Shown piece after piece: positions 34,863-63,904 of a DNA stretch of 64,000 bases. How positions within the stretch are numbered: position 1 is the first letter of the stretch; each line of letters starts with the position of its first letter. Location of the stretch: assembly GCA_003671185.1 (NCBI GenBank), contig QWPN01000032.1, positions 15,805-79,804 of the forward strand, read 5' to 3'. A model generated the notes under the pieces. That model saw only the letters and a list, made by a program, of their open reading frames with translations, was not told the origin of the DNA and made no database searches. Position numbers and translations under genes: made by a program. The DNA comes from Planctomycetota bacterium. Lineage in GTDB: Bacteria; Planctomycetota; Planctomycetia; Pirellulales; UBA1268.

Positions 34863-34877
34863 GGTGATGTCCCTGGT

Positions 34878-42943: not shown

Positions 42944-42958
42944 GATCTCGGTTCCTCG

Positions 42959-44797: not shown

Positions 44798-44813
44798 GGA
44801 ACGAATCCTGTCC

Positions 44814-47768
44814 TCAACGATCGACCGGCGGAGGCACGTCGAGCCTGTCCTCGATGGCGGGTGCGGCGGGGCGCTGAACTTTTGGCTTGTCGCGTTGGGC
44901 GGTCGGCTCCGGCTTTCTCGCGCTCACAAAGGTCGGGGGCTTGTCGCCAAGGACCAGAAGCACGCAGTTCCGTCCGTTTCCGAAGTCGATGGCGACGTCG
45001 CCACGAAACTCGGCATCGCCCTCGCCGAGCGCTTCGATCAGGCTCCTGGCCTGCTGTTTGAGCGGTGGCAGCATGTCCAGTTCCTCGAGCAGGCAGCACA
45101 GCGCCACGTCGGGGTGCGTGGTCTTGGTCCGGTCTTGCCCGGACTTGAGATGCGACCAGTATGCCGCGATGTCTCGCGGCGTTGGGGGACCTGAAGGCAC
45201 ATCCTGGTTCGCACCTCGGGCCGCAGTCGCGGTCCAATCCCGATATTCCGCCGACTCTGCCAACGCGCCGCGAATCCGCTCCTTCCACAGCGACACGGGT
45301 TGCTGGCCCTGCATTTCGATCTGTCCGAGGTCGAGCGGGGCCTTGGGATACTGCCGGCACACCTTGGTGCTGAATTTCTTGATGAGGTCGAAATCGACTT
45401 CGTCGTGGTCCGAGTCCGCCGGCACTTCGACGCCGATTTTCAGCAGGCTGACCCTCGGCAACTGGTGCAACGGGATCCGCGGCGGGACGGCCTGGTTGAG
45501 GTCCGCGCAGAAGCGGAACGTGTTCCACGGTTCCAGGACGTCGGACGACTGCAGCCAGAATTGGGTGTCGCATGGATCACTGTCCGTCGCCGGCACCTCT
45601 TTGTTGGCGAGTTGCAATTCCGTCTTCATCACGGGCTTGCCGGCGGGTGTCGACCATTCGATCGTCCAACTGGCGGGGGAGTTGAGCGCGGCGGAAGGAT
45701 ACCCTGCCCCTGACGTCGTGATTCTCCCCGCCAGTCCCCCGGGCACGCTCGTCCCCTCGAAACGCACCTGACATTGCCAGGGGGTCGAGGGCAGAGAGGC
45801 TCCCAGAAACAGTTTCACGGGGGTGTGCTTGAGCGATTGCGGCCGCAGTTTGTCATCGAAAAAAAACTGCTCGACCACGATTGGCCCGCCAGCGGTCGGA
45901 CGACACAACTGCACGTGCGTCGTCTGTTGGGGATGCTCCTCATCGGCCAGGATCACGATCGCGGTCGCCACCGCTGCCCGGGCGCCGAGATGTTCGCTGA
46001 ACCGCGGATCGTTGGGGGCGACCCGCTGATTCAGCGTGGCGCACACGGTATCGTCACGGATCGCCAGACGGCCAACTTCTATGGGCTCCGGAGCGACCGC
46101 GGCTCCGACTCGCGAACAGAGGATCCTCCAGTCGCCCTCCGCTGTCGGCACACACGACACTCGCGACTGCGGGCCGTTTGGTGCCAGGTTGAGCACGGCA
46201 TCCGGCAACTGCGGCCTGACCCTGGCGCCGTGCAGAGCGCACAGCCGTGCCGTCTGCTCCTGGAGAATGCCGCTGTCGAGTCCCTGGATGGGCAGATGCT
46301 CGGCGCTGTCGAGCGCTGAGCAGAGCTTGGGAAACGCGTCGACCGCTGGGGGAGCAGGCCGGGGCGGCCCGGGCGGCAGCGGCGGCGGTGGCGGTGGCGG
46401 TGGCGGTGGTGATGGTGAGGTGCGGCGGTCGATCGGCAAGCCGTCAGCCGACCGGGATGATGAATCGGCCACCACATCGGGACCGCCGACGACGAGGGGC
46501 GGCGGCACGGAAGACGGCTGAGCCACGATTGGCGCTCGTCCACCGCGGTCGGTTGCCAGTTCTGTTGGCGAAGGATTTCTTGGCCTCTCCGTCTCGCCGC
46601 TGGCGCCGGGGCGTCTCGAATTCGTGCGCGGCGGTGTCCCGGCGTCGCGCAATCCCATGAATCGCGTGCGCACACCGGGCACGACCAGGGCGATGAGTGC
46701 CACGATCACCGCCGTTGCCAGGGCGACCACGACGAGGGGCACCCATGACCGCCGTTGCCCCCGCTCCGCCCCCTCCGGTGCCGGCACGGCGGCGCGGGGC
46801 TGGCGAGCGGCGGTCGTGGAAAATGCGAACGGATTGGCGAGTGGCGGCGGAGCTCCAGGACGACCGGCCGCGATGCGTGGCGGCCTTCCGGGAGCGGCGG
46901 CCGCAGCGGCGCCGACGGCTGCGACCGCCCCGCCCCCACTCGCCGTTCCGGCCGGCAGCGCCTGCCACGGCACTTGTGCCTTTCCGCGAGCGGCGTCGAC
47001 CAGCGCCGATGCAGCCGTGAGCGGCGGCTTGCGGACGAGATCGACGACCGCGACCCGCGACTGCCCGCGGGCTGCCTGTGCTTCCGGCGAGCCATCCACG
47101 GTCCCCAGCCAGAGCATGTCGGGCTGCCCGACCGCGTACGTCGTGAACGTCACGCCCCAGCGCTGCGCGGGCGGCACGAGCGACAGGGCCTCCGCGAAGA
47201 GTTCGATGAGTTCGCAGTCTGCGGCGGCGATGATCCAGGTCTGTTCCCGACGCAGCGCCCGCTCGACGATGACACCCGCCCAACCGGCGTCACCCGCAAC
47301 ACGCGCCCAGGCATTGCATGGCTTCGGCTCGCACGCCGGCGCGGGTGGGGCGATCGTAGGCGCGGGTTGCTCGCGGGGCTGGCCCGACCATCGCCGCAGC
47401 AATCCGCCGGCATGATCGAGGGCCATCAGTACGCTGGCCGGACTCGACATGGCCCGCGCCGACACCTCGCCGCCGTCAAGCGCCAGATGATGGGCCAGCT
47501 TGTTGGAGCGGCCATCGTAGCCATTGCCCGCGTCGACGATGCTGCTGAGCACGGACATTTGGCCCGCCGGCGACTGAAGGAGCGCGTGGGACAGGATGCG
47601 GGGGTTCCGCGCGTCCCCCTGCGGGTACACGTGGCGGTAGGCGCTGCCCTGTTCCAATTTCGACTGCAGTTCGGGATGAATGCCTCGCGTCCGCAGCACG
47701 GTGGTGAAACCACTGCGGCCGGCCTGCAGGCCCCGCGCGGCGCTGGTGACCACGAGTTCGTGGATCAT
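44814..47768 (-). CDS. GAP1-like (GTPase-associated) single-pass TM protein, 984 aa (array B, gene 2)
   Basis: The ATG at 47768 (MIHELVVTSAARGLQAGRSGFTTVL...) forms an ATGA overlap with the GTPase stop. It has a ~330-aa N-terminal module, an Ala/Pro linker, the TM helix WVPLVVVALATAVIVALIALVV, a Pro10 tract, and the shared ~500-aa C-terminal domain. The GAP1 assignment rests on recollection of the family N-terminus and was not searched. Confidence 0.6.
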   Translation of the reverse strand: MIHELVVTSAARGLQAGRSGFTTVLRTRGIHPELQSKLEQGSAYRHVYPQGDARNPRILSHALLQSPAGQMSVLSSIVDAGNGYDGRSNKLAHHLALDGGEVSARAMSSPASVLMALDHAGGLLRRWSGQPREQPAPTIAPPAPACEPKPCNAWARVAGDAGWAGVIVERALRREQTWIIAAADCELIELFAEALSLVPPAQRWGVTFTTYAVGQPDMLWLGTVDGSPEAQAARGQSRVAVVDLVRKPPLTAASALVDAARGKAQVPWQALPAGTASGGGAVAAVGAAAAAAPGRPPRIAAGRPGAPPPLANPFAFSTTAARQPRAAVPAPEGAERGQRRSWVPLVVVALATAVIVALIALVVPGVRTRFMGLRDAGTPPRTNSRRPGASGETERPRNPSPTELATDRGGRAPIVAQPSSVPPPLVVGGPDVVADSSSRSADGLPIDRRTSPSPPPPPPPPPPLPPGPPRPAPPAVDAFPKLCSALDSAEHLPIQGLDSGILQEQTARLCALHGARVRPQLPDAVLNLAPNGPQSRVSCVPTAEGDWRILCSRVGAAVAPEPIEVGRLAIRDDTVCATLNQRVAPNDPRFSEHLGARAAVATAIVILADEEHPQQTTHVQLCRPTAGGPIVVEQFFFDDKLRPQSLKHTPVKLFLGASLPSTPWQCQVRFEGTSVPGGLAGRITTSGAGYPSAALNSPASWTIEWSTPAGKPVMKTELQLANKEVPATDSDPCDTQFWLQSSDVLEPWNTFRFCADLNQAVPPRIPLHQLPRVSLLKIGVEVPADSDHDEVDFDLIKKFSTKVCRQYPKAPLDLGQIEMQGQQPVSLWKERIRGALAESAEYRDWTATAARGANQDVPSGPPTPRDIAAYWSHLKSGQDRTKTTHPDVALCCLLEELDMLPPLKQQARSLIEALGEGDAEFRGDVAIDFGNGRNCVLLVLGDKPPTFVSARKPEPTAQRDKPKVQRPAAPAIEDRLDVPPPVDR
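46380..46409 (-). repeat. Pro10 tract encoded by a (CGGTGG)n hexanucleotide tandem repeat
   Basis: The plus strand reads cgg cgg tgg cgg tgg cgg tgg cgg tgg, which equals 10 consecutive Pro codons on the minus strand, within SPSPPPPPPPPPPLPPGPPRPAPP. Confidence 0.85.
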
Positions 47769-49087
47769 GGGGATTCCCCACCCCCTGCCTCGACCGCCGG
47801 TTTCGCCGCGTCCGCCGCAGCGGACCGCGGCACGCCGTGCGGAATGATGGCGGCCGAGCCACTGCCGAACTGGCTGAGCGCATAGAGCATGGGCACCTCG
47901 GCCCACATCGGGTTGATGGATCCGGCACGGTGCCAGTAGCCGTTGTCGGGGCCGCGCTGCGGCGGACCGCCCGTGGCACTGACCGGCACGTAGACGATCC
48001 TGCTCGGCTCGACGAAGCTCTCCGCCGTGGCCACGACCGCCGGCATGTACTCGTGCAGCATCTGGCGGATCGCGGCCGAAGCCCCCTGGATCATGTCGGG
48101 CCGCAGGACAGCGAAGCCGCCCGTCGGGTGCATGGTCCAGGGATCGGGCAGCCGCTCCCGGCCCAGGAGTTTCTGCCAGGCGTCGTATTTGTTCACCAGC
48201 ACGAGCAACGGCCGGTCGTGACGGGCATTCACCGCCAGGCCACGGTATGACTTGACGCGGCGGGCGACTTCCGCGAGCAACACTTCCTGCCGGCTGAGCA
48301 CCGCCGGATCGCGGACCTGCTCGTCCTCGGATATGTTCTGCAGGTGCTTGCGGAACTCGGGTTCCTGTGCCGGGTCATAGACGAACATCAGGCAATTCGA
48401 TTTCGCCAGATGCTGCGTCACGGGGTTGTCGGGCCGGTCGGCCCCGGGCTGGAAACTCTCGCCGGCGTTGTCGTAGACGCAGAGCGTGCGGGCCACGGAG
48501 GCGGGCTTGGCGGCATAGGGGTGTGAGCCAACCGGGCTGATCTGGAAGAAGAACGGCTTCGGGTAGAGGATCCGCTTCTCGCCGTAGGTCACCTCGTGAT
48601 ACCAGTCGCCGGTCACGTCGGTCTTCTTGAGATGCACGAGATCGTCGGGTTTGCCGTGCGCGAACAGTTCGTCCTCGTACTCGTGCAGCACCGCGTTGGC
48701 CTGCGGATCGGCATCGCTGAAGTCGATGGCAAACGACTTGGGGAGCAGTTTGCGCAGCCTGTGGATCATCGACGCCAACAGGTAGGACTTGCCGCTCTTG
48801 GGCGAGCCGAAGACCGACGCGAAGAACGCCGGCCGCTCCAGGAACACCCGCGGCACACCCAGATGACAACGCGGGCATGCGAGTTCGTGGCAGGGAGCAC
48901 CCTTGGCGTCCAAAGCCCGGCCTTCCGGATCGAAACGCGTGGGCGGAAAGCGCCGCCGTTCGTTCGGCCCCAGCCGCAGGTCACCGAACAGGTCGTGGTG
49001 CGATGACACATACCACACCCGCTCCGGCGGAAACCGCTCCCAGCAGTTGGGGCAGGTCACTTCCTTGACGAGGCTGGTGTGCTGCAT
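47765..49087 (-). CDS. Zn-ribbon + Ras-like (TRAFAC) GTPase (array B, gene 1)
   Basis: N-terminal CPNC...CPRC motif. G1 GSPKSGKS, G3 VYDNAGE, G4 LVNKYD, G5 VSATG. Confidence 0.8.
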   Translation of the reverse strand: MQHTSLVKEVTCPNCWERFPPERVWYVSSHHDLFGDLRLGPNERRRFPPTRFDPEGRALDAKGAPCHELACPRCHLGVPRVFLERPAFFASVFGSPKSGKSYLLASMIHRLRKLLPKSFAIDFSDADPQANAVLHEYEDELFAHGKPDDLVHLKKTDVTGDWYHEVTYGEKRILYPKPFFFQISPVGSHPYAAKPASVARTLCVYDNAGESFQPGADRPDNPVTQHLAKSNCLMFVYDPAQEPEFRKHLQNISEDEQVRDPAVLSRQEVLLAEVARRVKSYRGLAVNARHDRPLLVLVNKYDAWQKLLGRERLPDPWTMHPTGGFAVLRPDMIQGASAAIRQMLHEYMPAVVATAESFVEPSRIVYVPVSATGGPPQRGPDNGYWHRAGSINPMWAEVPMLYALSQFGSGSAAIIPHGVPRSAAADAAKPAVEAGGGESP

Positions 49088-49923: not shown

Positions 49924-51996
49924 TCAGGGCAGGACCTTGAGCGAGTCGTACCAGAGAATGCCGGGCCCGCGGGCGTTGGTGAGCCGCTTCGAACGTTCCT
50001 GGAGGATGGCCGAAACCTCCTGCTTGACCTTGGGCGCCTTGATGGGCCCGCTCACGAACAGCACGGGGTTGCGCACACGCATTCCCATGCGGTCGCGCAG
50101 GAATGCGCCCAGCGTGCGGTCCTGCTCCGGCATCTCGCTCCAGGCCGCCTCGATGGCCGCCTTGGCCTTGGTATGCGTCGAACGCTTGGCGATCAAGTCG
50201 GCGATGAATTTCACGGCCGCCTCTCCATTGAGCCTATCGCTCCGCTCCAAGTCCTTCACCAGGGCCATGAACATCGCCTCCAGAACGTCCACCTCGACCG
50301 GTGCCAGGAAGAGCAGTTCCCGCAGTTGGGGCATCTTCACGTCAGGCTGCAGCGGGTGGAACATCCAACCGGTGGCCGGCACGTAGTACTGCTGGTTGCT
50401 GGCGGCGAACGCCGCCAGCGTGCCACCGTCGTCGACGATCCGCTGTTCCATGCCCGGCCCCGGCACGGCGTACTGGTTGCGACGCTCCAGGGCGTCGATC
50501 TCCCGGGCCAGTGCCGCCTGGCGCCGCTGCTGCTCGGCCCCGGCTTCCCGGATCCGTTGATTGAGCTGGCTCGGATCGTTGATCCCCACGTTGCCTGGCA
50601 GCACCACGCTGCCAGGCTCGCACTTGTCGGCAATCCGCTGGGCCTGCTCCGCGAACGACTTTTGATACGACCTGTCTCCTTGGCCGACCCGGATAAATAC
50701 GAGCCGCACACCGGTCTGGGCCACGAGATCGGCCACTTCGTCGACCAATTTGTCCAGTTCGGCGTCGCGCCGGCGGTCGCCGGTGTCGCCGATCACCAGC
50801 ACCAGGCGTGACGAACCGGCCGAGAACTTCGCCGCCTTGATGCCGGCGATGATGCCGTCGAGCATCAATTCCTCGGGCTGGTCCCCCTCGCCGATCGGCG
50901 CCACCTCCTTGTGGGCGGCGACCTCCGTCGCCACGGCCGCGGCCTTCTCGGCGGTGAGCTTCTCCAAGGGCCCGAGATTCTCCAGGACGGGCTTCCCCTT
51001 GCCCCAGAAATCTCGATACCACACCACCCGCATCGCCGCCCCCACGCTTTCCGTGCCTTTCAGGCCGGCGATGAAGTCGGCCACCGGCTTGAAGTACGGC
51101 TGCATGCTCAGTGTGTCGTCGACCACGAACAGCATCTCGAAGTGAGATTCCTCCCCTTGTTGCTGCTGCTGGGTCCTCTTGCGTGCCAGCACCTTCGGAT
51201 TGACAGGGCCTCCACACACGGCGCCGATATGAAGCAGCCGGTTCTCGGGCCCCAGAGGAAACGTCTGGGGGGTATCCGGCAGTTTTTGCTCTTCCGCCGG
51301 AGCGAGCTCCAGGAAGGGGGGCGCCTCGCTGATCCGGCGCGGATCCCAGCTCGTTGCCCCCTTGCGTTCGGTGATCAGCACCTTGGCCAGATTCCGATCC
51401 GCCGCCTTCTGCACCACCAGGGCGTCGTAGGCATCCTCGGCACTGGCATACAGATCAACGGGATGCTTGCGCTCCAGGTTCGTGAACGAGTAGCCGTAGC
51501 GGCTCTTGAGCAGTTCCAGCTGCTCGCCCGATGCCCAGCCCACCACGGGCGTCTGCCCGGGCCGCGGGTCCTTGACCTGGGCGTAGTCGTTCGCCAGCAG
51601 GCACCAGCCGTTACCCAGCCCGTCCCCAATCTGCGCGTAGACGTAGAGCGGCATGAACAGGGGCTGCCGGGCGACGACCGGTTCCGTGAGCGAGGGGCTG
51701 TTTCGCAACTCCAGGTGGTCGAGCTTGCGCAGGCGTTCATCGGCGCCGGGCCGGCGCACTCCCATCGCCATGCGCGGCACCACCGTGCCCTCCATGAACA
51801 GGCATTCCAGAGCCAGCGGCGACCCGTCCGGCATGACGGGGTTCGGGGCCTTGTCGGGCAGGTAGACGGCCGCGTCGTCGGCAGCCGGGCCGAGCCCGCC
51901 CCCAGCCGCCGCCGGTTGCGCGGTCGCCGGCGTCGCTCCGTGGAGCACCACGGCGATCGCGACGACCGCAGTGCAGACGGCCGAACGTATCGCCAT
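49924..51996 (-). CDS. Secreted von Willebrand factor A (vWA) domain protein, 690 aa (array A, gene 7)
   Basis: Signal peptide MAIRSAVCTAVVAIAVVLHGATPATA. MIDAS-like motif FEMLFVVDDTLSM, followed by LVLVIGDTGD. The ATG overlaps the upstream stop by 1 nt (TGATG). Confidence 0.75.
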   Translation of the reverse strand: MAIRSAVCTAVVAIAVVLHGATPATAQPAAAGGGLGPAADDAAVYLPDKAPNPVMPDGSPLALECLFMEGTVVPRMAMGVRRPGADERLRKLDHLELRNSPSLTEPVVARQPLFMPLYVYAQIGDGLGNGWCLLANDYAQVKDPRPGQTPVVGWASGEQLELLKSRYGYSFTNLERKHPVDLYASAEDAYDALVVQKAADRNLAKVLITERKGATSWDPRRISEAPPFLELAPAEEQKLPDTPQTFPLGPENRLLHIGAVCGGPVNPKVLARKRTQQQQQGEESHFEMLFVVDDTLSMQPYFKPVADFIAGLKGTESVGAAMRVVWYRDFWGKGKPVLENLGPLEKLTAEKAAAVATEVAAHKEVAPIGEGDQPEELMLDGIIAGIKAAKFSAGSSRLVLVIGDTGDRRRDAELDKLVDEVADLVAQTGVRLVFIRVGQGDRSYQKSFAEQAQRIADKCEPGSVVLPGNVGINDPSQLNQRIREAGAEQQRRQAALAREIDALERRNQYAVPGPGMEQRIVDDGGTLAAFAASNQQYYVPATGWMFHPLQPDVKMPQLRELLFLAPVEVDVLEAMFMALVKDLERSDRLNGEAAVKFIADLIAKRSTHTKAKAAIEAAWSEMPEQDRTLGAFLRDRMGMRVRNPVLFVSGPIKAPKVKQEVSAILQERSKRLTNARGPGILWYDSLKVLP

Positions 51997-53954
51997 CAGA
52001 GCGTCCGATTCAGGCTGGCTTCAACGCCCTCTGCCGGCGTCGATTCTTGGGATGGCACGGTTTCGCCCGGCACGCGGCCCGGGGCACCCGCCGCCTCGTC
52101 GTGGGCGTGTTGCATGACGTTCTCCAGGTGCAGCCGCAGTTCCGCCGCCTTCGGCGATCGCACCGTGACCTCGCCGGGCTTAACGCCGGCAGGCACGAGC
52201 CCCTGGTGCATGTATCCCGCATAGGCCGGGTCGGCATCCGGGAACAGGAACGACATCGGAGCCAACCCAGGCCCCTTCGGCGGCTCGAGGCCACGGCCCA
52301 AGATCAGGTTCCGTTCCGGCCAGATGACGATGGCCCGTAGGTCGGGGTTCTGTGCCGCCTCACGTTTCTTGCGCACCGTCTCCTCGATCCGTGCGAGCTG
52401 ACCTGTCACGTCTTCCTGATCTTCCTCGAAAGGACGGAACATCTTGTCCTTTTCCGGGCTGCCACCAGACGGGGTGAGCAGATCTTCGCCCTTGTCCTGC
52501 CGGTTGAGGATGATCGCGCCGTTGTCGTAGATCTCCGCGGCGCGGCTGGCAACCGCCTCGCGGACCTGCTCGGTGATCTTGTCGCCCGGTTCGTGCAAAC
52601 GCTCGTCGTTGACGAGGATGATGATGTAGTCGCCGGTCTTTGGCGGCCCGCACAGCGCCTTGCAGCCGCAGCCCTTTCCGCCGCCGGCACCACTGCCGGA
52701 GCCGCTTCCAGAACCCGAGCCAGAGCCGCTGCCCGAACCCGAACCGCCGCCCTCGCCTGACCCGCCACCGCCGCCGCCACCAGGTGTTGCTCGGACCTCG
52801 ACCTTCGAGCCCATCGTGCCGTCGATCCCACCGAGGTCGGCGACCGACACCGGCTCGCTTCGTACCGCACCGGCTCGGGTCCTCACGCCGACGCCACGAC
52901 CGTCGTCTCCCAGACTGATGAAATCCTCGACGTCGCGTTCCATCGGCCCATTCCGCGCCAGGAGCACGGCGCCGTCCCGCTCCAGGTGGTCGATCTGCCG
53001 GCCGTCGCGATCCAGAAAGACGAGGTTTTCATCCGGCAACGGGTCGTCGTTCGCCGCCACCAGCGTGCAGGTGCGGGGATTGTCGGGGAACAACGGATGT
53101 GGCGGCGTCTCCATCTCGAGTTCGTACACCTCGTCGGGCCCCGGTGCGTTGTCGTCCCGCAGGCCGAACTTTTGTAATTCCTCGGGGGTCAGAACGTCTT
53201 CGAGCCGCATGCTTACGCTGCGATCTCCGACGTCGAACACTCGCTCGAAATGCTTGAGCAACGACCGCGGCTCGCCCGGTGTCGCCCGATACAGGTCGAA
53301 AGCCACCGGCACCCTGGTGTTCACAGCGGAGGCCGCCGGCACTTCGACCGTTGTGGAGGCCAGATCGTGCTCCGGCACCACCACCCTCTCAGTTGCGAAC
53401 TGCACCGGGATCACGCCCTCGGGTGTCGCTTCACGCGTGTCGTCGTCGACGATCGTCACCGTGCACCAGCCGTCGTCGCCCACGGTTGCGTCGGCGGTGG
53501 GCTGCAGCTCCAGACGGAAAGTCCGCCTGCCGTCCTGGCCGGTGAATTCGTCGTCATTGACGATCGTGATGTCCGGTGTCTCGGACTTCGTCATCCGCAG
53601 CTTGCCGTCCACGGCCCCCTCGTCGAAATGCATCACGGCGCCGCTGGGGATGACGCGGAAATCGCGGTCGTGCGTCGCCGACACGTCGGTCCAGACGAGC
53701 GGCACATCCATGGCGTAGGGCGCGGGCTTCGTGAGCTTGGCGCGGAGTCGCAACAGACCGTTGACATCGGGCTCTTCAACGCTGAGGCCCTTGCCGTCGA
53801 AGGCGACCTGGAGTGCCGTGGGCGGGGCGGCAGGCGGAGGCGAGAGCACCAAAAAGCCGGTGATCGTGAGCGAGTACACCCACACCACCCACCAGCCGAA
53901 CATAGAGAGCAGCGATTGACCGTTGAACATGATCTGTTCCCCGCGTGGTGTCAC
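51996..53954 (-). CDS. N-terminally TM-anchored protein with Calx-beta-like repeats, Gly/Ser linker, Cys cluster and C-terminal alpha/beta domain (array A, gene 6)
   Basis: The GTG at 53954 forms a GTGA overlap with the upstream stop; an alternative ATG is at 53930. TM helix [19 protein letters not shown]. Calx-beta-like pattern [21 protein letters not shown]...[11 protein letters not shown]...FRLEL and TVTIVDDD. A (G/S)36 tract is followed by [10 protein letters not shown]. Confidence 0.65.
   Translation of the reverse strand: [652 protein letters not shown]
52674..52781 (-). repeat. Gly/Ser low-complexity tract (36 aa) including a near-perfect (GS)9 repeat at 52689-52745
   Basis: Translation [37 protein letters not shown], encoded by imperfect hexanucleotide repeats (gagcc/gaacc units). 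Confidence 0.85.
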
Positions 53955-54859
53955 CCGTCCCCGAACATCTTGCCGAGCCCCTCGAAATCCTGTGCTGAGA
54001 TCGATGGCAGCGCCGGCTCTGGAGCGGGTCGCGCCTGGCCGGCACCCTTGGGCGTTTCCCGCTGCGTCACCGCAGCCTGTCCCGGCGCAGACGGCCCCGA
54101 CGCGAGTGCCGCGGCCACCACCGGTCCGGTTGCAGCCGGGAGATTGGCAGCCACGAACGCCGACTGCGCGTCAAGCGGGTTGACGCTGGACGACCAACGC
54201 TGCAGCAGGCTGCGCGTCCACTGGTCGATGGCCACGATCAACAGCATCAGCAGAAGAGCCGCCGCGATGGAGAGAATCATCGGCCATGCCACGACGCCGG
54301 CGACGGATCGCTTGCCTGCCTCGACGAGGCCCTTGCTCACGTACTCACCCCAGGTATCCCAGGCGCTGATCAGGCCGAATACGGGTGCCGTGAACGCGGC
54401 GGCACAGGCCGGCCAGAGCCGCTGCCCGAGAAGGCCCCGCGCCCGCGGCGCAAACTCGGTGACGGCATTCGTGAAATCCTGATCGGTGCGGCGCAGGGCC
54501 GGCGTGTTCTGCAGCGCCGCCGCCACGAGCCGAAGCGGCCACCAGGGGTGGTCTGTGTCGCCGTCGGATTCCGGTCCCGGTCGGCGCCCGAGTGCGCCAC
54601 TCAGCCGAAACAGCGAGAGGACTCGTGGCAGAAGCGTGAACACCCCGCCGAGGGCGATGCCATACGCGGCACAAGCCCACGGCTTGAGCGATCCACCGAC
54701 ATCTTCCGATCCAGCCACCATTGGCAGGACGAGGTAGCCCAGGCCGCCGCCCACGGCGATCACGATCCATGACGCCCAAGCGGCACCACCACCGAAAACG
54801 TCCCGGACGGCCGCTGCCAGCCCGTACCCCTCGGCATCACGATCACTTCTGCCCGACAT
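53951..54859 (-). CDS. Polytopic inner-membrane protein, 302 aa (array A, gene 5)
   Basis: About 4-5 hydrophobic helices (WASWIVIAVGGGLGYLVLPMV, ACAAYGIALGGVFTLL, WPACAAAFTAPVFGLISAW, VVAWPMILSIAAALLLMLLIVAI) and an Ala/Pro-rich tail. It starts 6 bp after the upstream stop. Confidence 0.65.
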   Translation of the reverse strand: MSGRSDRDAEGYGLAAAVRDVFGGGAAWASWIVIAVGGGLGYLVLPMVAGSEDVGGSLKPWACAAYGIALGGVFTLLPRVLSLFRLSGALGRRPGPESDGDTDHPWWPLRLVAAALQNTPALRRTDQDFTNAVTEFAPRARGLLGQRLWPACAAAFTAPVFGLISAWDTWGEYVSKGLVEAGKRSVAGVVAWPMILSIAAALLLMLLIVAIDQWTRSLLQRWSSSVNPLDAQSAFVAANLPAATGPVVAAALASGPSAPGQAAVTQRETPKGAGQARPAPEPALPSISAQDFEGLGKMFGDG

Positions 54860-54865
54860 GTTCGG

Positions 54866-57800
54866 TCACTCCGTCTCGACGATCGCGGGCCGCACGAGGC
54901 TGCTGCTCAAGGTTCTGACACCAGGTCGCAAAACCTTGCGGATTCTATTCCCGGACGGCCGCTTGCCGTCCGCACCGACCGCCCACTCGGAAGGGTAGTC
55001 GGTCAGTTTCACGGGCTCAAACACCACCATTCGGCAGGAACTCTTGAGAAGTTGCAGCAAATGGCCTTTGGCGGGCTCGAAGGCGGCCTGCAGGGGGCCC
55101 GGGGCCGCTTCCGCCGCCCCCCAGAGGCTGTCAAACAGGTTCGGCACCACCATGGGCAGCCGTCCGTTTGCAGCCTGCTTAGCCAACTCGTTGAGCCGCT
55201 TGTCCAAGTCTCCCAGCTTCGGAGTATGCCCCAATTCAGGGGTGTTGCCAAGTTCGCTCAAGGCAGCCCGCAGATCGTTGAATCCCGACGGGGCCGGCCC
55301 TGCCGACACGGCCCCTTCAAGCGGCACGCCGCACGGACCGCGGATCCCGAATCGCTTCAGCATGAACGCACCTGCGGGGACGCTCTCGTCGAAGGCGGGC
55401 ATGACTTCCAACTCCCCGAACTGTTCGCCCGGCAGAGCCTCGCCCGCTCGCCATTCCGCGGGCACGACCTCGTGCCCGAGCGCCGCGCACCATCGGGATG
55501 CAGCCGTGTACACCGCCTGCCGCGCGTCGGCATCCAGATCGTGGCCCGCCAGGAGAGCGTCGAGCAAGGGGCCTGCCTTGGTGACGGGATGCGCCGCGGC
55601 CTCGCCGAACGTCTGCCGGCGGTCGGTCGCGGCACGACATGAGGTGGCCAGTCCCTTGAGCCGCTCTCCGGCGTTGGCGGTGGCCGCCACGAGTCGGTCG
55701 GCGAGGTCCGCCGCCGATCCGGGTTCCCGCGGACCGTGGCCGATCACCCGCCGCGCCCGCCGCGGCTCGAGGGCAAATGTCACGGCTAGGTCGGTGCCGG
55801 CTGGTACGTCGGGATCATGGGCCCACGCGAGATACTCGTCATCGACGCCCGGAGGCATCAGTTCACGCCGGTCCGCCGTGAGCGGTGGATGGCAACGGAA
55901 ATCGAACCTGGGATCGGACACCAGCAGGTCGACCCATGCGATCAGCGCCGCGTCGCCTTTCCTCGCGCGATCGATCAGTTCGTGGAAGGCCGGCGCATCG
56001 GCTCCCGCAAAGCGGTCGCGCAGGGCGGGCAGCTCGGCGTCGAGTGGATGCGGGCTCGATCTCGCCAGCGACTCGATCAAACGTCCCTGGAACTCGGCAA
56101 GAACAATCCGCAACGGCCGGCCGCTGCCGGCTATCTCACGGGGCGCCGGCAGCAGGGTGTTGAGACAGCCGATGTCACCTTCTTCGACGGGGCCGGCGGA
56201 CACCGTCACGACCAGCCACCCGCGTCCGTCCAGTCGCTCGTCGAGCACCGTCCCGAACGGCGAATCGGACATCACCCAGGTCAGCCCCGTCTCGTCGGCA
56301 TCGGCATCGGCCGTCAACCGTTGCCTGAGCCACTTGCCCACATGCACCGTCCCGTCGGCCTGTCGGGGCGGCGAACACCGTTCCGTTGCCTGCCCGTCGC
56401 TCGCCGCAGCCTCGGCGAGCGCGACGCGGCCGAGTTCATGGAGGTTGTCGAGAAGGCGGTTGCCCAGATGCTGATTCACCGCCTCGTCCGCTGCGGCGAC
56501 GAGCGGCTGAAGCCCGAGCCTGGCGCGGTGTGCATAGTCGAAAAGCCCGGCCGTCGCCGGCCCACGTTCGGCCATCGTGCCGGCCAACACGTGGTTCTTC
56601 ACCGTTTCCCAGCGACGATGGTTGATGGCCGCCAGGATGCGGTCGCGTTGGTGGGATGCATGATCCGCAAGCGGTGCTTGAGCGAGCGCCCAGATCCGCC
56701 AGTCAACGGCTTCGATCACCTTCAGGAGACCGTCTCCGCACGCTGCCGGGGGCCCCACGGTCCCCACGTCCACGTCCCAGGCGACTGGGGGGCCTCCGGG
56801 AATCGCGAGCGCCGCGCGCAGGGTGAGTTTCGCCGCGCCGCCGGCAGGCTCCGGCGCTGCGTGCGGGATTACGCGACCTTCGGCACCGACTTGAACCGGG
56901 GTGGTGTGGAGCGAAAAGCCTTCGAATGCCATCGCTATCCGCAACGCCTCGCGTGACACTGGGTGGGCCTCGTCAGCGCCATCCGTTGCCGGTTGGCGGT
57001 TTTCTTCGCAGGCGATCGCGGCGAGCAAGCGGGCCGCCGCCACCAACCCGGCGTCGAGATCCTCCGGCGACACGACTGCACGCGCGTCATCGCCCGCGCG
57101 TTTCCACGCGCCGGCCGGCGGCGGTACGGCAGCCGTATCCAGCGCATTGCCACCCCAGCAATCAGCTGCGAACTCGAGCGCCGCCCGCCAATCGGTCACG
57201 GCCGCGTTCCCCGCGAACGTGATTCTCCGGCACATGAACGACGCCGGCGGCAGGACGGCGATACCCTTGATCAGGGTGGCTCGTTCGCCGGCACTCTGGA
57301 TCACGGGCCGCCGCACCTCCTGAATCAGGCCGCCGGCGAACTTCCCCGCGTGCCAGGCAGGAATCCAGTCCCGCACGGTGTCGACCGTGAGCGGGCCACC
57401 GGTCTCCAGTCCACGCTCGCTCCCGAACATCTCCTCGGCGTCCTGGAGCACCCCGGCGAATTCCTCTCTCAGACTCTGCAACCACTCCTGGCTCTGCCGC
57501 GCCGGGTCGGGCCTCCGCGCCCTCGGTCTGCGATGGAGCATCACCCACTTGAGGAGTTTGAGGCGGTAGTCACGGCGATTTTTGCCCACCCCACGCCAGT
57601 CCGGCCCCGGGACTCCCGCCGTCAGGGCACTCTGCTGCCACGCGTCGAAGGAGAAATGCAGCCGCTCGAATCTCCTCATGCACCAGAACGGCGGATAGAG
57701 GCCGCCGCGAGCCGGCGACAACACGGTTCCGTGCTGTTTCAACTCGGCTGCACTCCAGCCACCAAGTGCTTCGCCGGCCTGGAGCCACCAGCCGATCAGT

Positions 57801-58072
57801 TCGGCGTAACTCCACGCCTCCGGCACGCCCACATGCCCCGATTCATCGACGGGCAGGAGCGTCTTCACCCGCTGCACAAGCGACTCGATAGCGGCCCGTG
57901 TCCCGCGCACGGTGACGGTCTCTTCCCGCAACCGGCGTCGGACGTCGGAATCATGGGCCAGGAGCGGCTCGGGCATGCCGACCGCGCCGTCGCCCGCCGC
58001 CTCACGGCTCGCATGCGACAGGGAAAGCAATGCCTGCCTGCGACATTCCTCGACCATCCACGTCTCGGGCAT
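54866..58072 (-). CDS. Large hypothetical cytoplasmic protein (1068 aa) with GrpE-like C-terminal tail (array A, gene 4)
   Basis: ATG at 58072. No TM segment or NTPase motif. The last ~60 aa (VVFEPVKLTDYPSEWAV...PSGNRIRKVLRPGVRTLSSSLVRPAIVETE) resemble the GrpE beta-domain (..[36 protein letters not shown]). Confidence 0.6.
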   Translation of the reverse strand: MPETWMVEECRRQALLSLSHASREAAGDGAVGMPEPLLAHDSDVRRRLREETVTVRGTRAAIESLVQRVKTLLPVDESGHVGVPEAWSYAELIGWWLQAGEALGGWSAAELKQHGTVLSPARGGLYPPFWCMRRFERLHFSFDAWQQSALTAGVPGPDWRGVGKNRRDYRLKLLKWVMLHRRPRARRPDPARQSQEWLQSLREEFAGVLQDAEEMFGSERGLETGGPLTVDTVRDWIPAWHAGKFAGGLIQEVRRPVIQSAGERATLIKGIAVLPPASFMCRRITFAGNAAVTDWRAALEFAADCWGGNALDTAAVPPPAGAWKRAGDDARAVVSPEDLDAGLVAAARLLAAIACEENRQPATDGADEAHPVSREALRIAMAFEGFSLHTTPVQVGAEGRVIPHAAPEPAGGAAKLTLRAALAIPGGPPVAWDVDVGTVGPPAACGDGLLKVIEAVDWRIWALAQAPLADHASHQRDRILAAINHRRWETVKNHVLAGTMAERGPATAGLFDYAHRARLGLQPLVAAADEAVNQHLGNRLLDNLHELGRVALAEAAASDGQATERCSPPRQADGTVHVGKWLRQRLTADADADETGLTWVMSDSPFGTVLDERLDGRGWLVVTVSAGPVEEGDIGCLNTLLPAPREIAGSGRPLRIVLAEFQGRLIESLARSSPHPLDAELPALRDRFAGADAPAFHELIDRARKGDAALIAWVDLLVSDPRFDFRCHPPLTADRRELMPPGVDDEYLAWAHDPDVPAGTDLAVTFALEPRRARRVIGHGPREPGSAADLADRLVAATANAGERLKGLATSCRAATDRRQTFGEAAAHPVTKAGPLLDALLAGHDLDADARQAVYTAASRWCAALGHEVVPAEWRAGEALPGEQFGELEVMPAFDESVPAGAFMLKRFGIRGPCGVPLEGAVSAGPAPSGFNDLRAALSELGNTPELGHTPKLGDLDKRLNELAKQAANGRLPMVVPNLFDSLWGAAEAAPGPLQAAFEPAKGHLLQLLKSSCRMVVFEPVKLTDYPSEWAVGADGKRPSGNRIRKVLRPGVRTLSSSLVRPAIVETE

Positions 58073-58110: not shown

Positions 58111-60546
58111 CTAGATCTTGCCGCTCTGCGGAGGCGCCAGGTAGGGCGGCACCTCGAACGGATCGGCGATCACGCGGTCTTCCTTGCCGCCATCTCGCTT
58201 CGGGTAGGCGACAAAGGCGTGCGCGTCCTCACTGTCGTACTCCACGAGATACGCCCCTTCCACCGGCTCGGGGAAGCGGAAGATCACGTACGGCTCGGCC
58301 ACCGACTCGCCCGGCCATCGTCGGCTGAGCACGACCTCACGCACGCTAGGCCTGCCGGTCACCGGATCCGGCTTGATGTCGATCGTCCGCGGCAGCAACT
58401 CCGAATACAGTTCGCCCGTGTGATACAGCACACGGTCGCCGACACTGCCCAGCGTGACGTGTACGACGTCGAAGGGCAGCCGGCGCACGACCTGATGATC
58501 CCAGGACACCGTCATGCCCATCTCTTGGTAGCGGAGCTTCATGGCCACGATCGCCCCCTTGGCGACCGAGTTCTTGAAGTCCTCCGGGCGGACCAGCGCC
58601 AGCCGATCCTTGAGGAAGCGCACCCGCAGGCCGCGTTGCGGATCGAGGAGCATCTCGCGAATGCGCGGATATCGCGAGGCGTTGCCGACCAGGTACACCC
58701 AGTGCACCTCCGGCACCTCGAGCGATCCGGGAACGGCCCCGCCCGGCCCCGACTGGGGCGCCAGGCAGGTTTCCAGCAGATCGTTCGCGTATTCGATGGT
58801 GCGCACGATCGGCGCATCGATGAGGGCGTCGACTTCGCGCCGCTGCACCTTGAGCTTTTCCACGAGTTCGTCCGGCATCACGTCCTGGCCCGGGTTCAGC
58901 TGCTTCCACAGCTTGTTGAGCAACCCAGTCTCTTCGGGGCCGGGCGTGCAGAATTGCGCGGTGGGGGCGCTGAGCCGGATCTTGAACCGCTCCGCCAACT
59001 TCCACAGATCCATGACGGTTTCGCGGCGCCGCTTGGCCTCGCTGTTCTGGCTCTGCCGCACGTCGAACGTCGTGGGCACGGCATCGTTGATGGCCTTCCT
59101 GTTTTCAGGGCGGTCGAGGAATTCGGCCAGCTTCGCCGGCGCGGGCAGGGGCTCGACCTTTTCCTGAAGCTCCGCCAGCCTCGCCTTGAGCAGCCGGAAC
59201 ACCTGCTCGGTGATGTAGTCGCCGCCGAACGTGCGGTGGCCGGCCCGGCCCAAGACGCTGATCTTCAGAGCGCCGGCGTCGGACGACTCCAGTCGCACGA
59301 GCGCCAGGTCGGTGGTGCCGCCACCGCAGTCGTAGAGCAGCATGTGCATGCCGTTCGGGTACAGGTAGCGGAAGGCCGGCATGCGGCCAGGTCCGAAAAT
59401 GAAGTCCCTATAGGCGAAATAGAATGCGGCCGCCGACGCTTCGTCCACGACCATCGGCACGCGGGCGTCGATCATCTCCGGACGGAACGAGGCAGCCGTC
59501 TTCCCCAATACCCGGTGAAACGCCCGGGCCACCGTGGTGCGCAGGCGGTTCACCTCCGACTCCGAGAACGTCGTCGGGCAGGTGACGACGATCGGCTCCG
59601 GGACCGACTGGCGGTGGTAGAAGAACCCGCGCAGCATCTGGCTGATGAACACCTCCGCGGGATCCTCCTTGCGGATCACGTGCGGGGTGTTGTTGAGCAC
59701 GATCACTTCACTGTCGGAATTGGCGTCGGACTGGCGGCGATCCGAAAGCAGCCGCTTCGCCCCCAGCACCAGCCACGTATCGTCGCGGGCGTCGTCCATG
59801 GCCCGCTTGCCGATCCGCGACTCGTAGACCATGAACTGCTGGGGGGTTTCCGGATCCCTGATCCCGTAGATGCGCAGAGCGGTCTGCACGGGCCCTGGCT
59901 TTTCGTTGACGTTCACGTCGCCGACCTCATCGGCCTGCACGACCTCGAACTCGCTCTGATTCGTCTCGGAGCAAACGAGCGTGCTGCCGGTATTGCCGAA
60001 GTCGAGGGCCACATAGCCGGCGAAGTGCCCCATCTCCTTCATGGGACTGAGGATCAGCCGGGCGTCGACCCGTGAGGCGAGCACCGCCTTCGTCTCCGGA
60101 TCGACCGCGAACACGTCGATGTCGAGCGTCACGGGCGCGCCCAACTGGGCGGCACCGCCCTTTGGCGACGCCTTCATCTGCTGCGCCTTCTCCACCACCT
60201 TTGGATGGTCGGTGTCGACCTCGATGTCGACGTCCAAATCGGCGGCACCCTGCATCGCCACCACCACGAATTCCTTGGCCTGGAGCACACTGGGCGGAAC
60301 CCGCAGGAACTGCCCCACGTACTTGCGGGCCTCGGCGCCACCCTTGTGCGACTTCTCCGGCACCACGCGAATGAAGCGGCCCAGTTCCCGCGGCAACGAC
60401 ACCACCAGGAACCACTGGTTGCTGGTGGCAATGAAGGCGGGCGTGACCTGCACGTTGTCGAGCAGATCGTTGTTCGCGATCGTGAACTTGTACTTCCGCA
60501 CACCGGTGCGGGGTATGACGCCATGGGCGTGAATCGACGCGGTCAT
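58111..60546 (-). CDS. Atypical Hsp70/actin-fold ATPase, 811 aa (array A, gene 3)
   Basis: Phosphate-1 motif VALDFGNTGSTLV, phosphate-2 motif LLYDCGGGTTDLALV, and adenosine motif VYLVGNASRYPRIREML. It also has a ~180-aa non-DnaK N-terminal domain and a beta-rich C-terminus. Confidence 0.8.
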   Translation of the reverse strand: MTASIHAHGVIPRTGVRKYKFTIANNDLLDNVQVTPAFIATSNQWFLVVSLPRELGRFIRVVPEKSHKGGAEARKYVGQFLRVPPSVLQAKEFVVVAMQGAADLDVDIEVDTDHPKVVEKAQQMKASPKGGAAQLGAPVTLDIDVFAVDPETKAVLASRVDARLILSPMKEMGHFAGYVALDFGNTGSTLVCSETNQSEFEVVQADEVGDVNVNEKPGPVQTALRIYGIRDPETPQQFMVYESRIGKRAMDDARDDTWLVLGAKRLLSDRRQSDANSDSEVIVLNNTPHVIRKEDPAEVFISQMLRGFFYHRQSVPEPIVVTCPTTFSESEVNRLRTTVARAFHRVLGKTAASFRPEMIDARVPMVVDEASAAAFYFAYRDFIFGPGRMPAFRYLYPNGMHMLLYDCGGGTTDLALVRLESSDAGALKISVLGRAGHRTFGGDYITEQVFRLLKARLAELQEKVEPLPAPAKLAEFLDRPENRKAINDAVPTTFDVRQSQNSEAKRRRETVMDLWKLAERFKIRLSAPTAQFCTPGPEETGLLNKLWKQLNPGQDVMPDELVEKLKVQRREVDALIDAPIVRTIEYANDLLETCLAPQSGPGGAVPGSLEVPEVHWVYLVGNASRYPRIREMLLDPQRGLRVRFLKDRLALVRPEDFKNSVAKGAIVAMKLRYQEMGMTVSWDHQVVRRLPFDVVHVTLGSVGDRVLYHTGELYSELLPRTIDIKPDPVTGRPSVREVVLSRRWPGESVAEPYVIFRFPEPVEGAYLVEYDSEDAHAFVAYPKRDGGKEDRVIADPFEVPPYLAPPQSGKI

Positions 60547-62631: not shown

Positions 62632-62680
62632 CGGTCGATTCTCCCTGTCTTCCCTGCGGGCAGCGGCCCGCGGATCGAGC

Positions 62681-63904
62681 TCACTCCATCGCCCGCAATT
62701 CGGAGACCCACTCCCCAATCCGGTCCGGCACCATATAGCCCTCGGTCATCTTCAAGGGTAGTTTCTCGCCATCCGTCCCCTCGAACTCGTAGACCAAGAG
62801 GGCGTTGTCTCCCACGGCGTTGGCCTGGGCGCCGAGCTGCTTCTTCCAGCCTTCCACGTCGAGTTCGCTGCGGGCCGTGAACCGATCGCCCACCAGCGGC
62901 AGTTCCACCCATCCCGCCGGGGAGTCAGGCCTGAGCGCACCCTTGCGGATGCCCTTGCGGATCACGTCGGGCAACTTCTTGAATCCGTCCTCCTGCGCCA
63001 GGATCGCCTCGATCGACTCACGCTCGCGGGCCAACTGCTCACCGTTGAGCGGAAACAGCACCCACAGCCGCTTGGGTTCCACGTTTCGCGGCTTGGGGAA
63101 GTCGAACACCAGTTTTCCGTCCACGATGCTCACCCGCTTGCCCAGCACCTCGATGAAACTGGCCACCATCAGCGAGGCCGGCTGCAACTCCTTGATCGGG
63201 TTGCCGACCTTCTTGGGATCGCGGAGCGATTCGAAGAGCAACGCTTCATTGCCCACGATGTCGTTGAGTGTCACAAGGTAGCAGCGGCCCACGTTGGGCC
63301 AGGCCTGGGACACCTCGCGCTTGTTGGTCTTGACGCCGTCGTCCTCGGTGACCTCGAAGCGAATCGAGCGCGGCGGGCGTCCCTTGGGCAGCTTGAGGAC
63401 GTAGGTGCCGGGGCTGTGGAAGCGGAGATCGAACCCGTCGGGGTTCGCCACGCCGACGCCAACTTCCAGCGTCTTCTCCCCCTTGCCGTCCCCGGCGTCG
63501 GCCACCACGGTGGCGCTGTCCATGTAGCCGTAGGCGCTGCCGAGGTTGATGCTCCACGAACCGTCCTCGCCTTGCAGGGGCTCTATGAGCGCGGCCTTGG
63601 TCGCCGCAGAGCCATCACGCTTGGCACCGGTCCCGCGCGTGAGCACGGATCGCAGCACGAGATACGTTTCGGCGTCGACCGGCTCGACGACCATGTCCTT
63701 GAACGTGCAGCCGGTCGTGCCCTTGCGCGCCGACTCGAACTTCTGCTTCACCTCGCTGAGCGTGGTGGTGGGCTCGGTCTGGATCACCATGTAGATCACC
63801 CGGGCGTCGGCCGCGGCGGCACGTGCTGCACCGGCGAGCAGCAGACTTGCCCCCAGGCAGGCGCCGAGCGCGGCGGCCGGGATGCGGGCCAGTACGGGAT
63901 TCAT
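62681..63904 (-). CDS. Secreted hypothetical protein, 407 aa (array A, gene 1)
   Basis: ATG at 63904 with an AGGAG 8 nt upstream; the ORF extends to 63952. Signal peptide MNPVLARIPAAALGACLGASLLLAGAARAAAA. No known domain. Confidence 0.65.
   Translation of the reverse strand: MNPVLARIPAAALGACLGASLLLAGAARAAAADARVIYMVIQTEPTTTLSEVKQKFESARKGTTGCTFKDMVVEPVDAETYLVLRSVLTRGTGAKRDGSAATKAALIEPLQGEDGSWSINLGSAYGYMDSATVVADAGDGKGEKTLEVGVGVANPDGFDLRFHSPGTYVLKLPKGRPPRSIRFEVTEDDGVKTNKREVSQAWPNVGRCYLVTLNDIVGNEALLFESLRDPKKVGNPIKELQPASLMVASFIEVLGKRVSIVDGKLVFDFPKPRNVEPKRLWVLFPLNGEQLARERESIEAILAQEDGFKKLPDVIRKGIRKGALRPDSPAGWVELPLVGDRFTARSELDVEGWKKQLGAQANAVGDNALLVYEFEGTDGEKLPLKMTEGYMVPDRIGEWVSELRAME

Follow-up and report, generated by a model that had tools for sequence, protein, structure and literature searches.

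Genes at the locus

A 64,000-nucleotide stretch of a Planctomycetota genome (contig QWPN01000032.1; hereafter, the window) carries a run of eleven genes on its minus strand (g1-g11; DNA of ~68% G+C). This study concerns g5, g6, and g7, which form the envelope part of a rare, conserved seven-gene cassette (g1-g7) that also encodes dynamin-like and Hsp70-like proteins. The genes of the cassette, in their order of transcription and with window coordinates, are as follows:

62681-63952 (-): g1, 423 aa, signal-peptide-like N-terminus
60577-62718 (-): g2, 713 aa, Pfam Dynamin_N match of 28.4 bits, above threshold
58111-60546 (-): g3, 811 aa, weak Hsp70/HscA match at the phosphate-binding motif LLYDCGGGTTDL
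54866-58072 (-): g4, 1068 aa, no family
53951-54859 (-): g5, 302 aa
51996-53954 (-): g6, 652 aa from GTG (longest open reading frame)
49924-51996 (-): g7, 690 aa, predicted exported protein

An earlier note on this DNA, made from the sequence alone, had described g5-g7 as three consecutive genes with overlapping starts and stops. The three consecutive minus-strand open reading frames (302, 652, and 690 aa) stand, as does the g6/g7 overlap, in which the g6 TGA and the g7 ATG share the sequence TGATG; a 6-nt gap separates the g4 stop from the g5 ATG. The g5 TGA overlaps the GTG at 53954 from which the longest g6 reading frame begins. The likelier g6 start, however, is probably the ATG at 53930, 21 nt further downstream (644 aa; 51996..53930 (-)), because all g6 homologs begin at this position, with MFxxQS or MxxGRS; a Shine-Dalgarno-like GGGGAA motif precedes it. 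All g6 residue numbers given below count from ATG 53930 (644-aa version). Scans of the window g5-g7 proteins against Pfam, NCBIfam, and PADLOC gave no match above threshold.

Conservation and distribution of the cassette

Loci were compared on the contigs of the homologs, in 11 loci from GTDB genomes, and in 24 metagenome loci. The g5-g6-g7 order is kept in every related locus that is long enough, i.e., in ~30 loci from metagenomes or metagenome-assembled genomes (MAGs), nearly all from Planctomycetota. The full composition comprises a secreted protein (g1), a dynamin-like protein (g2), an Hsp70-like protein (g3), and a cytoplasmic protein of ~1000 aa (g4), followed by g5-g7, and the order g2-g3-g4-g5-g6-g7 is found in L001, L002, L005, L006, L010-L012, and L017-L040, wherever the contig allows. 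Among the new metagenome loci, g5 lies upstream of g6 in 15/15 informative cases and g7 directly downstream of g6 in 21/21. The linkage to dynamin-like and Hsp70-like genes, noticed earlier in the window, therefore recurs as conserved synteny. In L001, L002, and L005, genes on the opposite strand follow g7 and synteny is broken there, from which we conclude that the cassette ends with g7. The largest unexplained component is g4, a cytoplasmic protein (1068 aa in the window) without any family match that is present in every cassette.

The cassette is rare. A word-indexed search of 5.8 billion proteins retrieved only 7 relatives of g7, and 11 g7-family loci, mostly from Planctomycetota, were found in GTDB genomes. 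Since the full-length g6 query was swamped by its low-complexity linker and returned one protein only, a linker-deleted alignment was used for the g6 homolog search; when 1.84 billion cluster representatives were searched exhaustively by HMMER, with the C-terminal domain of g6 as the query, 19 clusters (50% identity) were found, all belonging to the same family. Named carriers are Planctomycetota MAGs (Pirellulales, Planctomycetia, Ca. Kuenenia, Isosphaeraceae), and the others are one MAG labeled Alphaproteobacteria and a Cytophagaceae MAG with a remote relative. The former (L011; JAPLPD010000239) holds the sole full cassette outside the Planctomycetota-Verrucomicrobiota-Chlamydiota (PVC) group, with a long Cys-repeat g6 as in the Planctomycetia locus L010, which points to horizontal transfer or a binning error. 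A literature search for a bacterial system combining dynamin, Hsp70, and a von Willebrand factor A (vWA) protein found no description of this cassette.

The genes of the cassette differ in their rate of divergence. When the window g2-g9 were compared with L001, L002, and L019-L024, using the same locus pairs for all genes, between-clade identity was 74-78% for g2, 66-68% for g3, and 60-70% for g8, in contrast to 31-49% for g4-g7. Fast evolution of g4-g7 next to slowly evolving NTPases fits parts that face variable ligands, but weaker constraint would also explain it.

g7, an exported TssR-like vWA protein

The following features were delineated in g7:

51919..51996 (-): putative signal peptide, residues 1-26, ending ATA|Q (sequence pattern and homolog N-termini)
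51202..51825 (-): N-terminal conserved domain, residues ~58-265 (alignment), aligning with the pre-vWA part of a TssR-like protein
50587..51150 (-): predicted vWA domain, residues ~283-470 (AlphaFold2 [AF2] pLDDT 70-88, Foldseek)
51106-51120 (-): residues D293, T295, and S297 of a site resembling the metal ion-dependent adhesion site (MIDAS), which further includes E376 and D404
49927..50574 (-): C-terminal helical domain, residues ~475-690 (AF2 helices, pLDDT 60-80 in part), conserved in the family

The g7 N-terminus has the n-h-c layout of a Sec-type signal peptide (MAIRSAVCTAVVAIAVVLHGATPATA|Q), and comparable N-termini are found in essentially all homologs. The protein is thus predicted to be exported, in agreement with the secreted character proposed earlier. 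In a heuristic reading, the signal ends at ATA|Q with no Cys at position +1, so there is no signal peptidase II (SPII) lipobox.

Sequence searches with g7 itself were uninformative as to its central domain: the window protein has no Pfam vWA match at E<=1, and nothing was found when g7 was compared with PDB sequences, singly or as a profile. Of 13 g7 family members scanned against Pfam, 3 match VWA or VWA_2 and 2 match TssR_VWA. The AF2 model has a mean pLDDT of 53, with values of 70-88 over residues 270-500, and all of its top 50 Foldseek matches in the PDB are vWA domains (E 1.6e-6 to 6e-5; target-normalized TM-score [TMt] 0.6-0.71), including integrin I and I-like domains, BatB, CMG2/ANTXR1, Rpn10, and ITIH1. 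Judged by the model, the central domain of g7 is a vWA fold. D293-x-T295-x-S297 (within DDTLSM), E376, and D404 (in VIGDxGD, reading VIGDTGD in the window) are invariant in 13 g7-family sequences, including the TssR-like protein described below, and the motif reads as a DxTxS variant of MIDAS with its residue set intact. The vWA domain with a MIDAS-like site that the earlier note had assigned to g7 is thereby upheld. Integrin beta I-like domains have a MIDAS with a similar set of residues.

The kinship of g7 became apparent from an 804-aa protein of a Cytophagaceae MAG (locus L014) that has the full Pfam TssR architecture, with matches to TssR_VWA (8.5e-27), the N-terminal barrel, TssR_M, TssR_C, and VWA (8.6e-6). 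The profile of the g7 family (alignment A1) matched this protein in hhalign with 98.7% probability (E 2.2e-16), aligning g7 residues 58-426 with L014 residues 139-499. The alignment covers the pre-vWA domain and the vWA domain; it begins past the barrel and ends ahead of TssR_C. The Pfam models for TssR are PF17643, PF20780, PF20782, and PF20781; window g7 itself matches none of them, and the N-barrel (PF17643) and TssR_C (PF20781) were undetected by Pfam in g7 and its close homologs. On these profile comparisons, g7 is a distant homolog of TssR-like vWA proteins and not a TssR ortholog, because it has no lipobox, the N-barrel and TssR_C are undetected, and no T6SS genes lie nearby. Within alignment A1, C65 and C261 are invariant in the N-terminal domain and form a possible disulfide pair. 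No relative of the C-terminal helical domain was detected.

In the loci of two remote g7 relatives (L014:9476-14312 and L015:8750-13934, the latter from an Isosphaeraceae MAG), ABC_tran and FtsX-permease genes directly follow the g7-like gene. The L014 locus encodes, in addition, a Tubulin_2 protein and a protease of the trypsin-like type; the part of this locus that was covered contains no T6SS genes.

g6, an anchored stalk protein with Calx-beta domains

The features of g6, from N- to C-terminus, are as follows:

53844..53912 (-): Trp-rich putative membrane anchor, FGWWVVWVYSLTITGFLVL (AF2 helix 7-28, hydropathy)
53448..53813 (-): D1, residues 40-161, Calx-beta-like beta-sandwich with DxDF / IVNDDE / FxLxL motifs
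53052..53411 (-): D2, residues 174-293, second Calx-beta-like sandwich and best-modeled part (AF2 pLDDT 81-92)
52782..53030 (-): D3, residues 301-383, third, Ig-like beta-sandwich (AF2 strands, pLDDT 74-87)
52650..52781 (-): variable spacer, 36-aa Gly/Ser tract and CGCKALC (disordered in the AF2 model)
52086..52649 (-): conserved C-terminal alpha/beta domain (head, orphan)

All features that the earlier note had listed for this protein are present, namely the N-terminal anchor, the D1 motifs, the 36-aa Gly/Ser tract, CGCKALC, and the C-terminal domain with DYIIILVND...GAIILNR...LRAIVIWPE. The anchor is conserved across the family, with G12, W14, V15, W17, V18, and L21 invariant, which hints at a defined contact within the membrane, g5 being the simplest candidate partner.

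The Calx-beta fold proposed for g6 was borne out along several lines. Window g6 aligns with Pfam Calx-beta (PF03160) over profile positions 10-119 of 119 at 13.9 bits (E 0.054-0.056), below the gathering threshold of 27 bits, and Pfam Calx-beta matches are found in 3/10 homologs (best E 3.4e-7). A phmmer search of the PDB with g6 alone gave Gly/Ser-linker artefacts only; the g6 family profile matched only the Calx-beta domains of NCX1/CALX (best E 0.004). In Foldseek, the AF2 model has NCX1/CALX CBD1-CBD2 structures as its 11 best matches, with E from 1e-11 and a TMt of 0.77-0.78 to single CBD1; two-domain alignments to CALX CBD12 extend over 281-292 columns (E ~1e-10), and the integrin beta4 Calx-beta domain comes next in the list (TMt 0.72). 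By profile and model, D1 is upheld as a Calx-beta domain, and so is D2 by its fold. Ca2+ binding, which the earlier note had attached to the fold, fared differently as a conserved trait: window D1 retains acidic NDDE and DDD clusters, but the NDDE position reads DHAA, GAAE, PDPS, or KDNF in g6 homologs. Since the acidic loops are not kept across the family, Ca2+ dependence would not be a family trait.

The spacer between D3 and the head varies in length among g6 orthologs that are 84-91% identical elsewhere (36, 38, and 26 aa). It comprises ~13 residues in L005 and L012 and up to ~215 in the following homologs:

L010:3965-6250
L011:7845-10004
L013:8232-9917
P0008

The long spacers consist of CxxCGGxxGGC repeats (120-215 residues, 4 Cys per ~17 aa) followed by poly-Gly; in none of the four proteins do the repeats match a Pfam model, DnaJ_CXXCXGXG (PF00684) included. 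In the window, the Gly/Ser tract (52650-52781) is encoded by imperfect tandem repeats with periods of 6, 18, and 24, and we suggest that its variation in length among the close orthologs is driven by slippage.

The g6 head domain and its proposed pairing with g7

The head domain carries the conserved motifs VNxxRLHEPGD, WPER, SFLxPDAD, and TVRSP..EL..H, and it has no match in the PDB. It had been proposed to be a degenerate vWA or Rossmann-like fold. The vWA proposal was rejected at the profile level: hhalign of the head against the g7 vWA profile gave a probability of 0.8%, and no relatives outside the family were found among the 1.84 billion representatives. The head is best described as an alpha/beta domain of an orphan family, for which a Rossmann-like hint comes only from the strand-helix alternation of a low-confidence model. 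One member of the g6 family, P0020 (1088 aa), has a C-terminal extension of ~500 aa made of HEAT-like repeats, which stems from a true gene fusion or from read-through in gene calling; it was considered as a g6-g7 fusion and rejected, as the extension has no similarity to g7.

Several gene arrangements suggest that the g6 head and g7 act jointly. Their genes are always adjacent. Contig JBIIMX010000001 of a Pirellulales MAG has, in addition to a full cassette (L012), a second g6-g7 pair that is divergently transcribed (L013:8232-11896). The g6 paralog of this pair lacks the Calx-beta domains and consists of signal peptide, Cys repeats, and head alone; a g7 paralog follows it. On the other side, a 487-aa gene lies ahead of g1. 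In the Isosphaeraceae variant L015, a g6-like gene (hhalign 88%, E 3e-6) and a g7-like gene lie beside Hsp70-like and g4-like genes. A 202-aa secreted protein of L014 was also considered as a homolog of the g6 head and rejected (hhalign 0.2%).

g5 and membrane topology

The topology of g5-g7 was read from hydropathy, Lys/Arg counts, and the charge rule. In g5, described earlier as a 302-aa multi-pass protein, hydropathy indeed reveals four transmembrane (TM) segments at residues ~27-50, 60-80, 148-170, and 190-212. The loop between TM2 and TM3 comprises 58-70 residues with 8-11 Lys/Arg in 7/7 homologs, and this basic loop, together with both termini, is therefore placed in the cytoplasm, making g5 a predicted four-TM inner-membrane protein with N-in/C-in topology. 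The loop carries a conserved WWPLRLV motif, and the otherwise variable tail closes with a conserved LxGLxKLF-type motif. No relative of g5 was found in Pfam, NCBIfam, PADLOC, or the PDB, nor did any g5 homolog match Pfam. A MotA/ExbB/TolQ-like stator (PF01618) was considered for its similar layout and rejected, as it has neither sequence support nor a conserved acidic TM residue in the partner: no such residue is found in g5 or the g6 anchor, and the latter lacks Asp and Glu.

For g6, a predicted bitopic protein, we regard an N-in/C-out topology as quite probable, because homologs with long N-terminal flanks are strongly basic there (5 Lys/Arg in L005, 5 in L037, and 6 in L013), the L013 paralog has an apparent cleavable signal peptide before the longest Cys-repeat region, and g6 is translationally coupled to the exported g7.

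The DO-GTPase/GAP1-N2 neighborhood and the rest of the window

Genes downstream of the cassette and elsewhere in the window comprise the following:

40940-49087 (-): g8-g11, GAP1-N2-type DO-GTPase system, directly downstream of g7, starting after an 840-nt gap behind it
1172-7112: CheR, CheA-CheW-REC, and CheB genes
13062-13973: XerC/D-like tyrosine recombinase
24700-35000: nuo (NADH dehydrogenase) operon

The protein g8 matches DO-GTPase2 (E 3.9e-5; 23.9 bits, just under the gathering threshold of 27) and carries N-terminal CxxC zinc ribbons; g9 matches GAP1-N2 (7.4e-17) and GAP1-M (3.7e-8), both above their gathering thresholds, and has a TM segment, while g10 and g11 are two further single-TM proteins. 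By these matches, g8-g11 are a DO-GTPase plus GAP1-N2/GAP1-M system, an identification that concerns the neighbors and not g5-g7. In 10 other loci, a DO-GTPase2 and GAP1-N2 pair likewise adjoins the cassette, its distance and orientation differing between loci; loci with a downstream pair include L001, L002, L012, L017-L020, L023, and L024. The remaining window is ordinary chromosome; besides the che cluster, the XerC-like recombinase, and the nuo operon listed above, it encodes an M32 peptidase. An 814-aa open reading frame had raised the suspicion of a second, paralogous cassette at 24.7-35 kb, which was rejected, as this region is the nuo operon.

Possible role of g5-g7

Three findings go beyond what had been noticed earlier: the kinship of g7 with TssR-like proteins, the three beta-sandwiches of g6, and the DO-GTPase/GAP1-N2 system downstream. 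The reading that we favor, and hold with slightly better than even confidence, is that g5-g7 form an envelope-spanning anchor or sensor sub-complex of the g1-g7 cassette that serves its cytoplasmic NTPases. The protein g6 would be anchored N-in/C-out, with its helix packed on the g5 TM bundle, and the beta-sandwich stalk and adjustable spacer would hold the head in the periplasm, where it would pair with g7. The g7 MIDAS would bind either the g6 head or an external ligand, and the g5 loop and C-terminal motif would dock the cytoplasmic NTPases g2-g4. Periplasmic binding at the vWA MIDAS might thus be coupled to dynamin-like and Hsp70-like activity at the inner membrane, and as the output, the dynamin-like protein could remodel the membrane or the Hsp70-like protein could handle clients. 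The setting is likely envelope surveillance or biological conflict, because the DO-GTPase/GAP1-N2 system adjoins the cassette in several clades and the envelope parts evolve much faster than the NTPases.

Several observations weigh against this proposal. The whole topology rests on hydropathy and charge heuristics, and the charge rule is ambiguous for the closest g6 homologs, which have 0-1 Lys/Arg before the anchor and 1-4 after it; it stayed ambiguous when the count was widened by 13 more N-termini (two loci excluded). AF2 confidence is low for the g7 N-terminal domain and for the g6 head, whose five strand-helix alternations have pLDDT values of only 36-59. The cassette has no known effector domain, ligand, or phenotype, and it lies in a chromosomal housekeeping region with no obvious defense island; the DO-GTPase/GAP1 linkage is not universal, being absent within 7-10 kb in L029 and L008.

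The same data can be read in other ways. One such reading, which we consider improbable but not negligible, is that g5-g7 are the membrane complex of a transport apparatus for secretion or for uptake, including an endocytosis-like uptake of macromolecules in Planctomycetota; by analogy with TssN/P/R, which anchor the T6SSiii, they would build a scaffold or conduit across the envelope, with the NTPases powering remodeling or substrate handling. The homology of g7 to TssR-like proteins and the parallel between the three-protein layout and the T6SSiii membrane complex speak for it, as do the ABC_tran and FtsX genes directly after the g7-like gene in distant variants, the secreted g1 that heads the operon, and the dynamin-like GTPase that exceeds the Pfam threshold. 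However, Pfam and NCBIfam/PADLOC scans found no baseplate, sheath, secretin, outer-membrane barrel, or other conduit component in the cassette, g5 has only 4 TM segments with short periplasmic loops, and the missing lipobox and undetected terminal TssR domains set g7 apart from TssR; moreover, a family so rare (19 clusters) is hard to square with a general planctomycetal uptake route. The topology of g6 might also be reversed, which we regard as quite unlikely: Calx-beta domains, Cys repeats, and head would then be cytoplasmic, with zinc-finger-like repeats recruiting the Hsp70-like g3, the short N-terminus would face the periplasm, and g7 alone would be a periplasmic protein. In favor of it, NCX1 has its Calx-beta domains in the cytoplasm, the CxxCGGxxGGC repeats resemble the DnaJ CxxCxGxG zinc-finger motif, and the low Lys/Arg count before the anchor in the closest homologs, with up to 4 after it, suits such an orientation. 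Against it stand the basic long flanks of L005, L037, and L013, the last with its signal-peptide-like N-terminus ahead of the longest Cys repeats, as well as the coupling of g6 to the exported g7, with which the head always travels; in addition, the Cys repeats have no Pfam DnaJ_CXXCXGXG match, and their absence from L005 and L012, together with the single CGCxxxC left in the window, precludes an indispensable role as Hsp70 adaptor.

The earlier note had proposed Ca2+- or metal-dependent adhesion modules and force or signal transmission across the inner membrane. In the version in which an extracellular or cell-wall ligand is bound and force is passed on mechanically, this proposal appears very unlikely to us. 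Its Calx-beta and vWA folds were confirmed, the g7 MIDAS residues are intact, and window D1 keeps its NDDE and DDD clusters, but the acidic Ca2+-site residues are not conserved in the g6 family, a motor or stator is lacking (g5 does not resemble MotA/ExbB in sequence, and there is no conserved acidic TM residue), and nothing points to surface exposure beyond the periplasm. A bolder version of the anchor or sensor sub-complex, to which we likewise attach a very low probability, is that a periplasmic vWA/Calx-beta receptor captures a ligand and, via g5, recruits the dynamin-like GTPase and the Hsp70-like ATPase to remodel or pinch the cytoplasmic membrane; alternatively, the response could be membrane repair or an abortive reaction to phage attack. 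If true, receptor-triggered remodeling would be a bacterial analog of dynamin/Hsc70 membrane trafficking and would bear on the disputed endocytosis-like uptake in Planctomycetota.

The cassette joins a TssR-like vWA protein, so far seen in Bacteroidota T6SS and in tubulin-vWA systems, to dynamin-like and Hsp70-like NTPases in Planctomycetota. If the g5-g7 sub-complex is real, vWA/beta-sandwich envelope scaffolds would extend to a new phylum and to a new class of cytoplasmic engines, and DO-GTPase/GAP1-N2 conflict systems would acquire a specific partner for sensing at the envelope. For structural work, two orphan families come to light, namely the g6 head and the four-TM protein g5. The cassette is very rare and occurs in uncultivated freshwater lineages, and its impact therefore hinges on finding a tractable host.

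Comparison with known systems

The Calx-beta domains of NCX1 (CBD1/CBD2) and integrin beta4 are the closest counterparts of g6 D1 and D2 in fold (Foldseek E 1e-11 to 1e-6, TMt ~0.77), and the Calx-beta motif A.xG.DF ... DD.E ... F.l.L is recognizable in g6. Unlike in NCX1, where these domains belong to the regulatory loop of an exchanger, in g6 they would be part of a bacterial periplasmic stalk. The g7 vWA domain has BatB (3ibs) among its best structural matches and, like BatA/BatB, is a predicted bacterial envelope vWA, but it shares no sequence-level similarity with them and has neither a MoxR ATPase nor other Bat operon partners. The CoCoNuT Hsp70-like systems were also considered as relatives of the cassette and were found to be unrelated.

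GAP1-N2 systems, with a DO-GTPase and a GAP1 protein as their core, are GTPase-centric conflict systems that act near the membrane and are found in planctomycetes, with lineage-specific linked arrays that include Hsp70, extracytoplasmic vWA, and TM proteins (Kaur et al., 2020; PMC7159879). The present cassette differs from those described there by its dynamin-like GTPase, Calx-beta protein, and TssR-like vWA; the terms "dynamin" and "Calx" have 0 occurrences in that paper, and no TssR-like vWA is mentioned. Compared with the Hsp70 theme of GAP1-N2 systems, g3 is highly divergent, and the cassette has no GrpE or DnaJ.

A counterpart of the envelope part as a whole is the membrane complex TssN-Q-O-P-R of the Bacteroidota type VI secretion system subtype iii (T6SSiii), in which TssR is a vWA lipoprotein, TssP has one TM helix, two PKD beta-sandwiches, and a further domain, and TssN is polytopic; the periplasmic domains of TssR and TssP bind each other, and TssR assembles with TssN (PMC10781749). 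The architecture of g5-g7 parallels TssN/TssP/TssR, and for the vWA member the homology is real, though distant. Similarly to TssR, g7 is a predicted exported, multi-domain protein with a central vWA, homologous over the TssR_M and TssR_VWA regions, and it adjoins a single-TM beta-sandwich protein (g6) and a polytopic protein (g5). In contrast to TssR, it lacks a lipobox, and neither an N-barrel nor a TssR_C domain was detected; g6 differs from TssP in having Calx-beta instead of PKD domains plus an orphan head, and g5 differs from TssN (5 TM segments and a domain) in having 4 TM segments and no globular cytoplasmic domain. Unlike a T6SSiii locus, the cassette has no T6SS family near g7, whose partners are dynamin-like, Hsp70-like, and DO-GTPase/GAP1 proteins.

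The FtsZl1/Tubulin_2-vWA systems, finally, combine a cytoskeletal or NTPase protein, a signal-peptide vWA with an intact MIDAS, and membrane proteins (Makarova and Koonin, 2010; PMC2875224). The g1-g7 cassette resembles them in joining NTPases, a predicted exported MIDAS vWA, and membrane proteins, and differs in having dynamin-like and Hsp70-like proteins instead of tubulin, with no OmpA or kinase. In L014, the TssR-like relative of g7 has precisely this kind of Tubulin_2 neighborhood, which ties the TssR-like vWA family to the FtsZl1-vWA systems.

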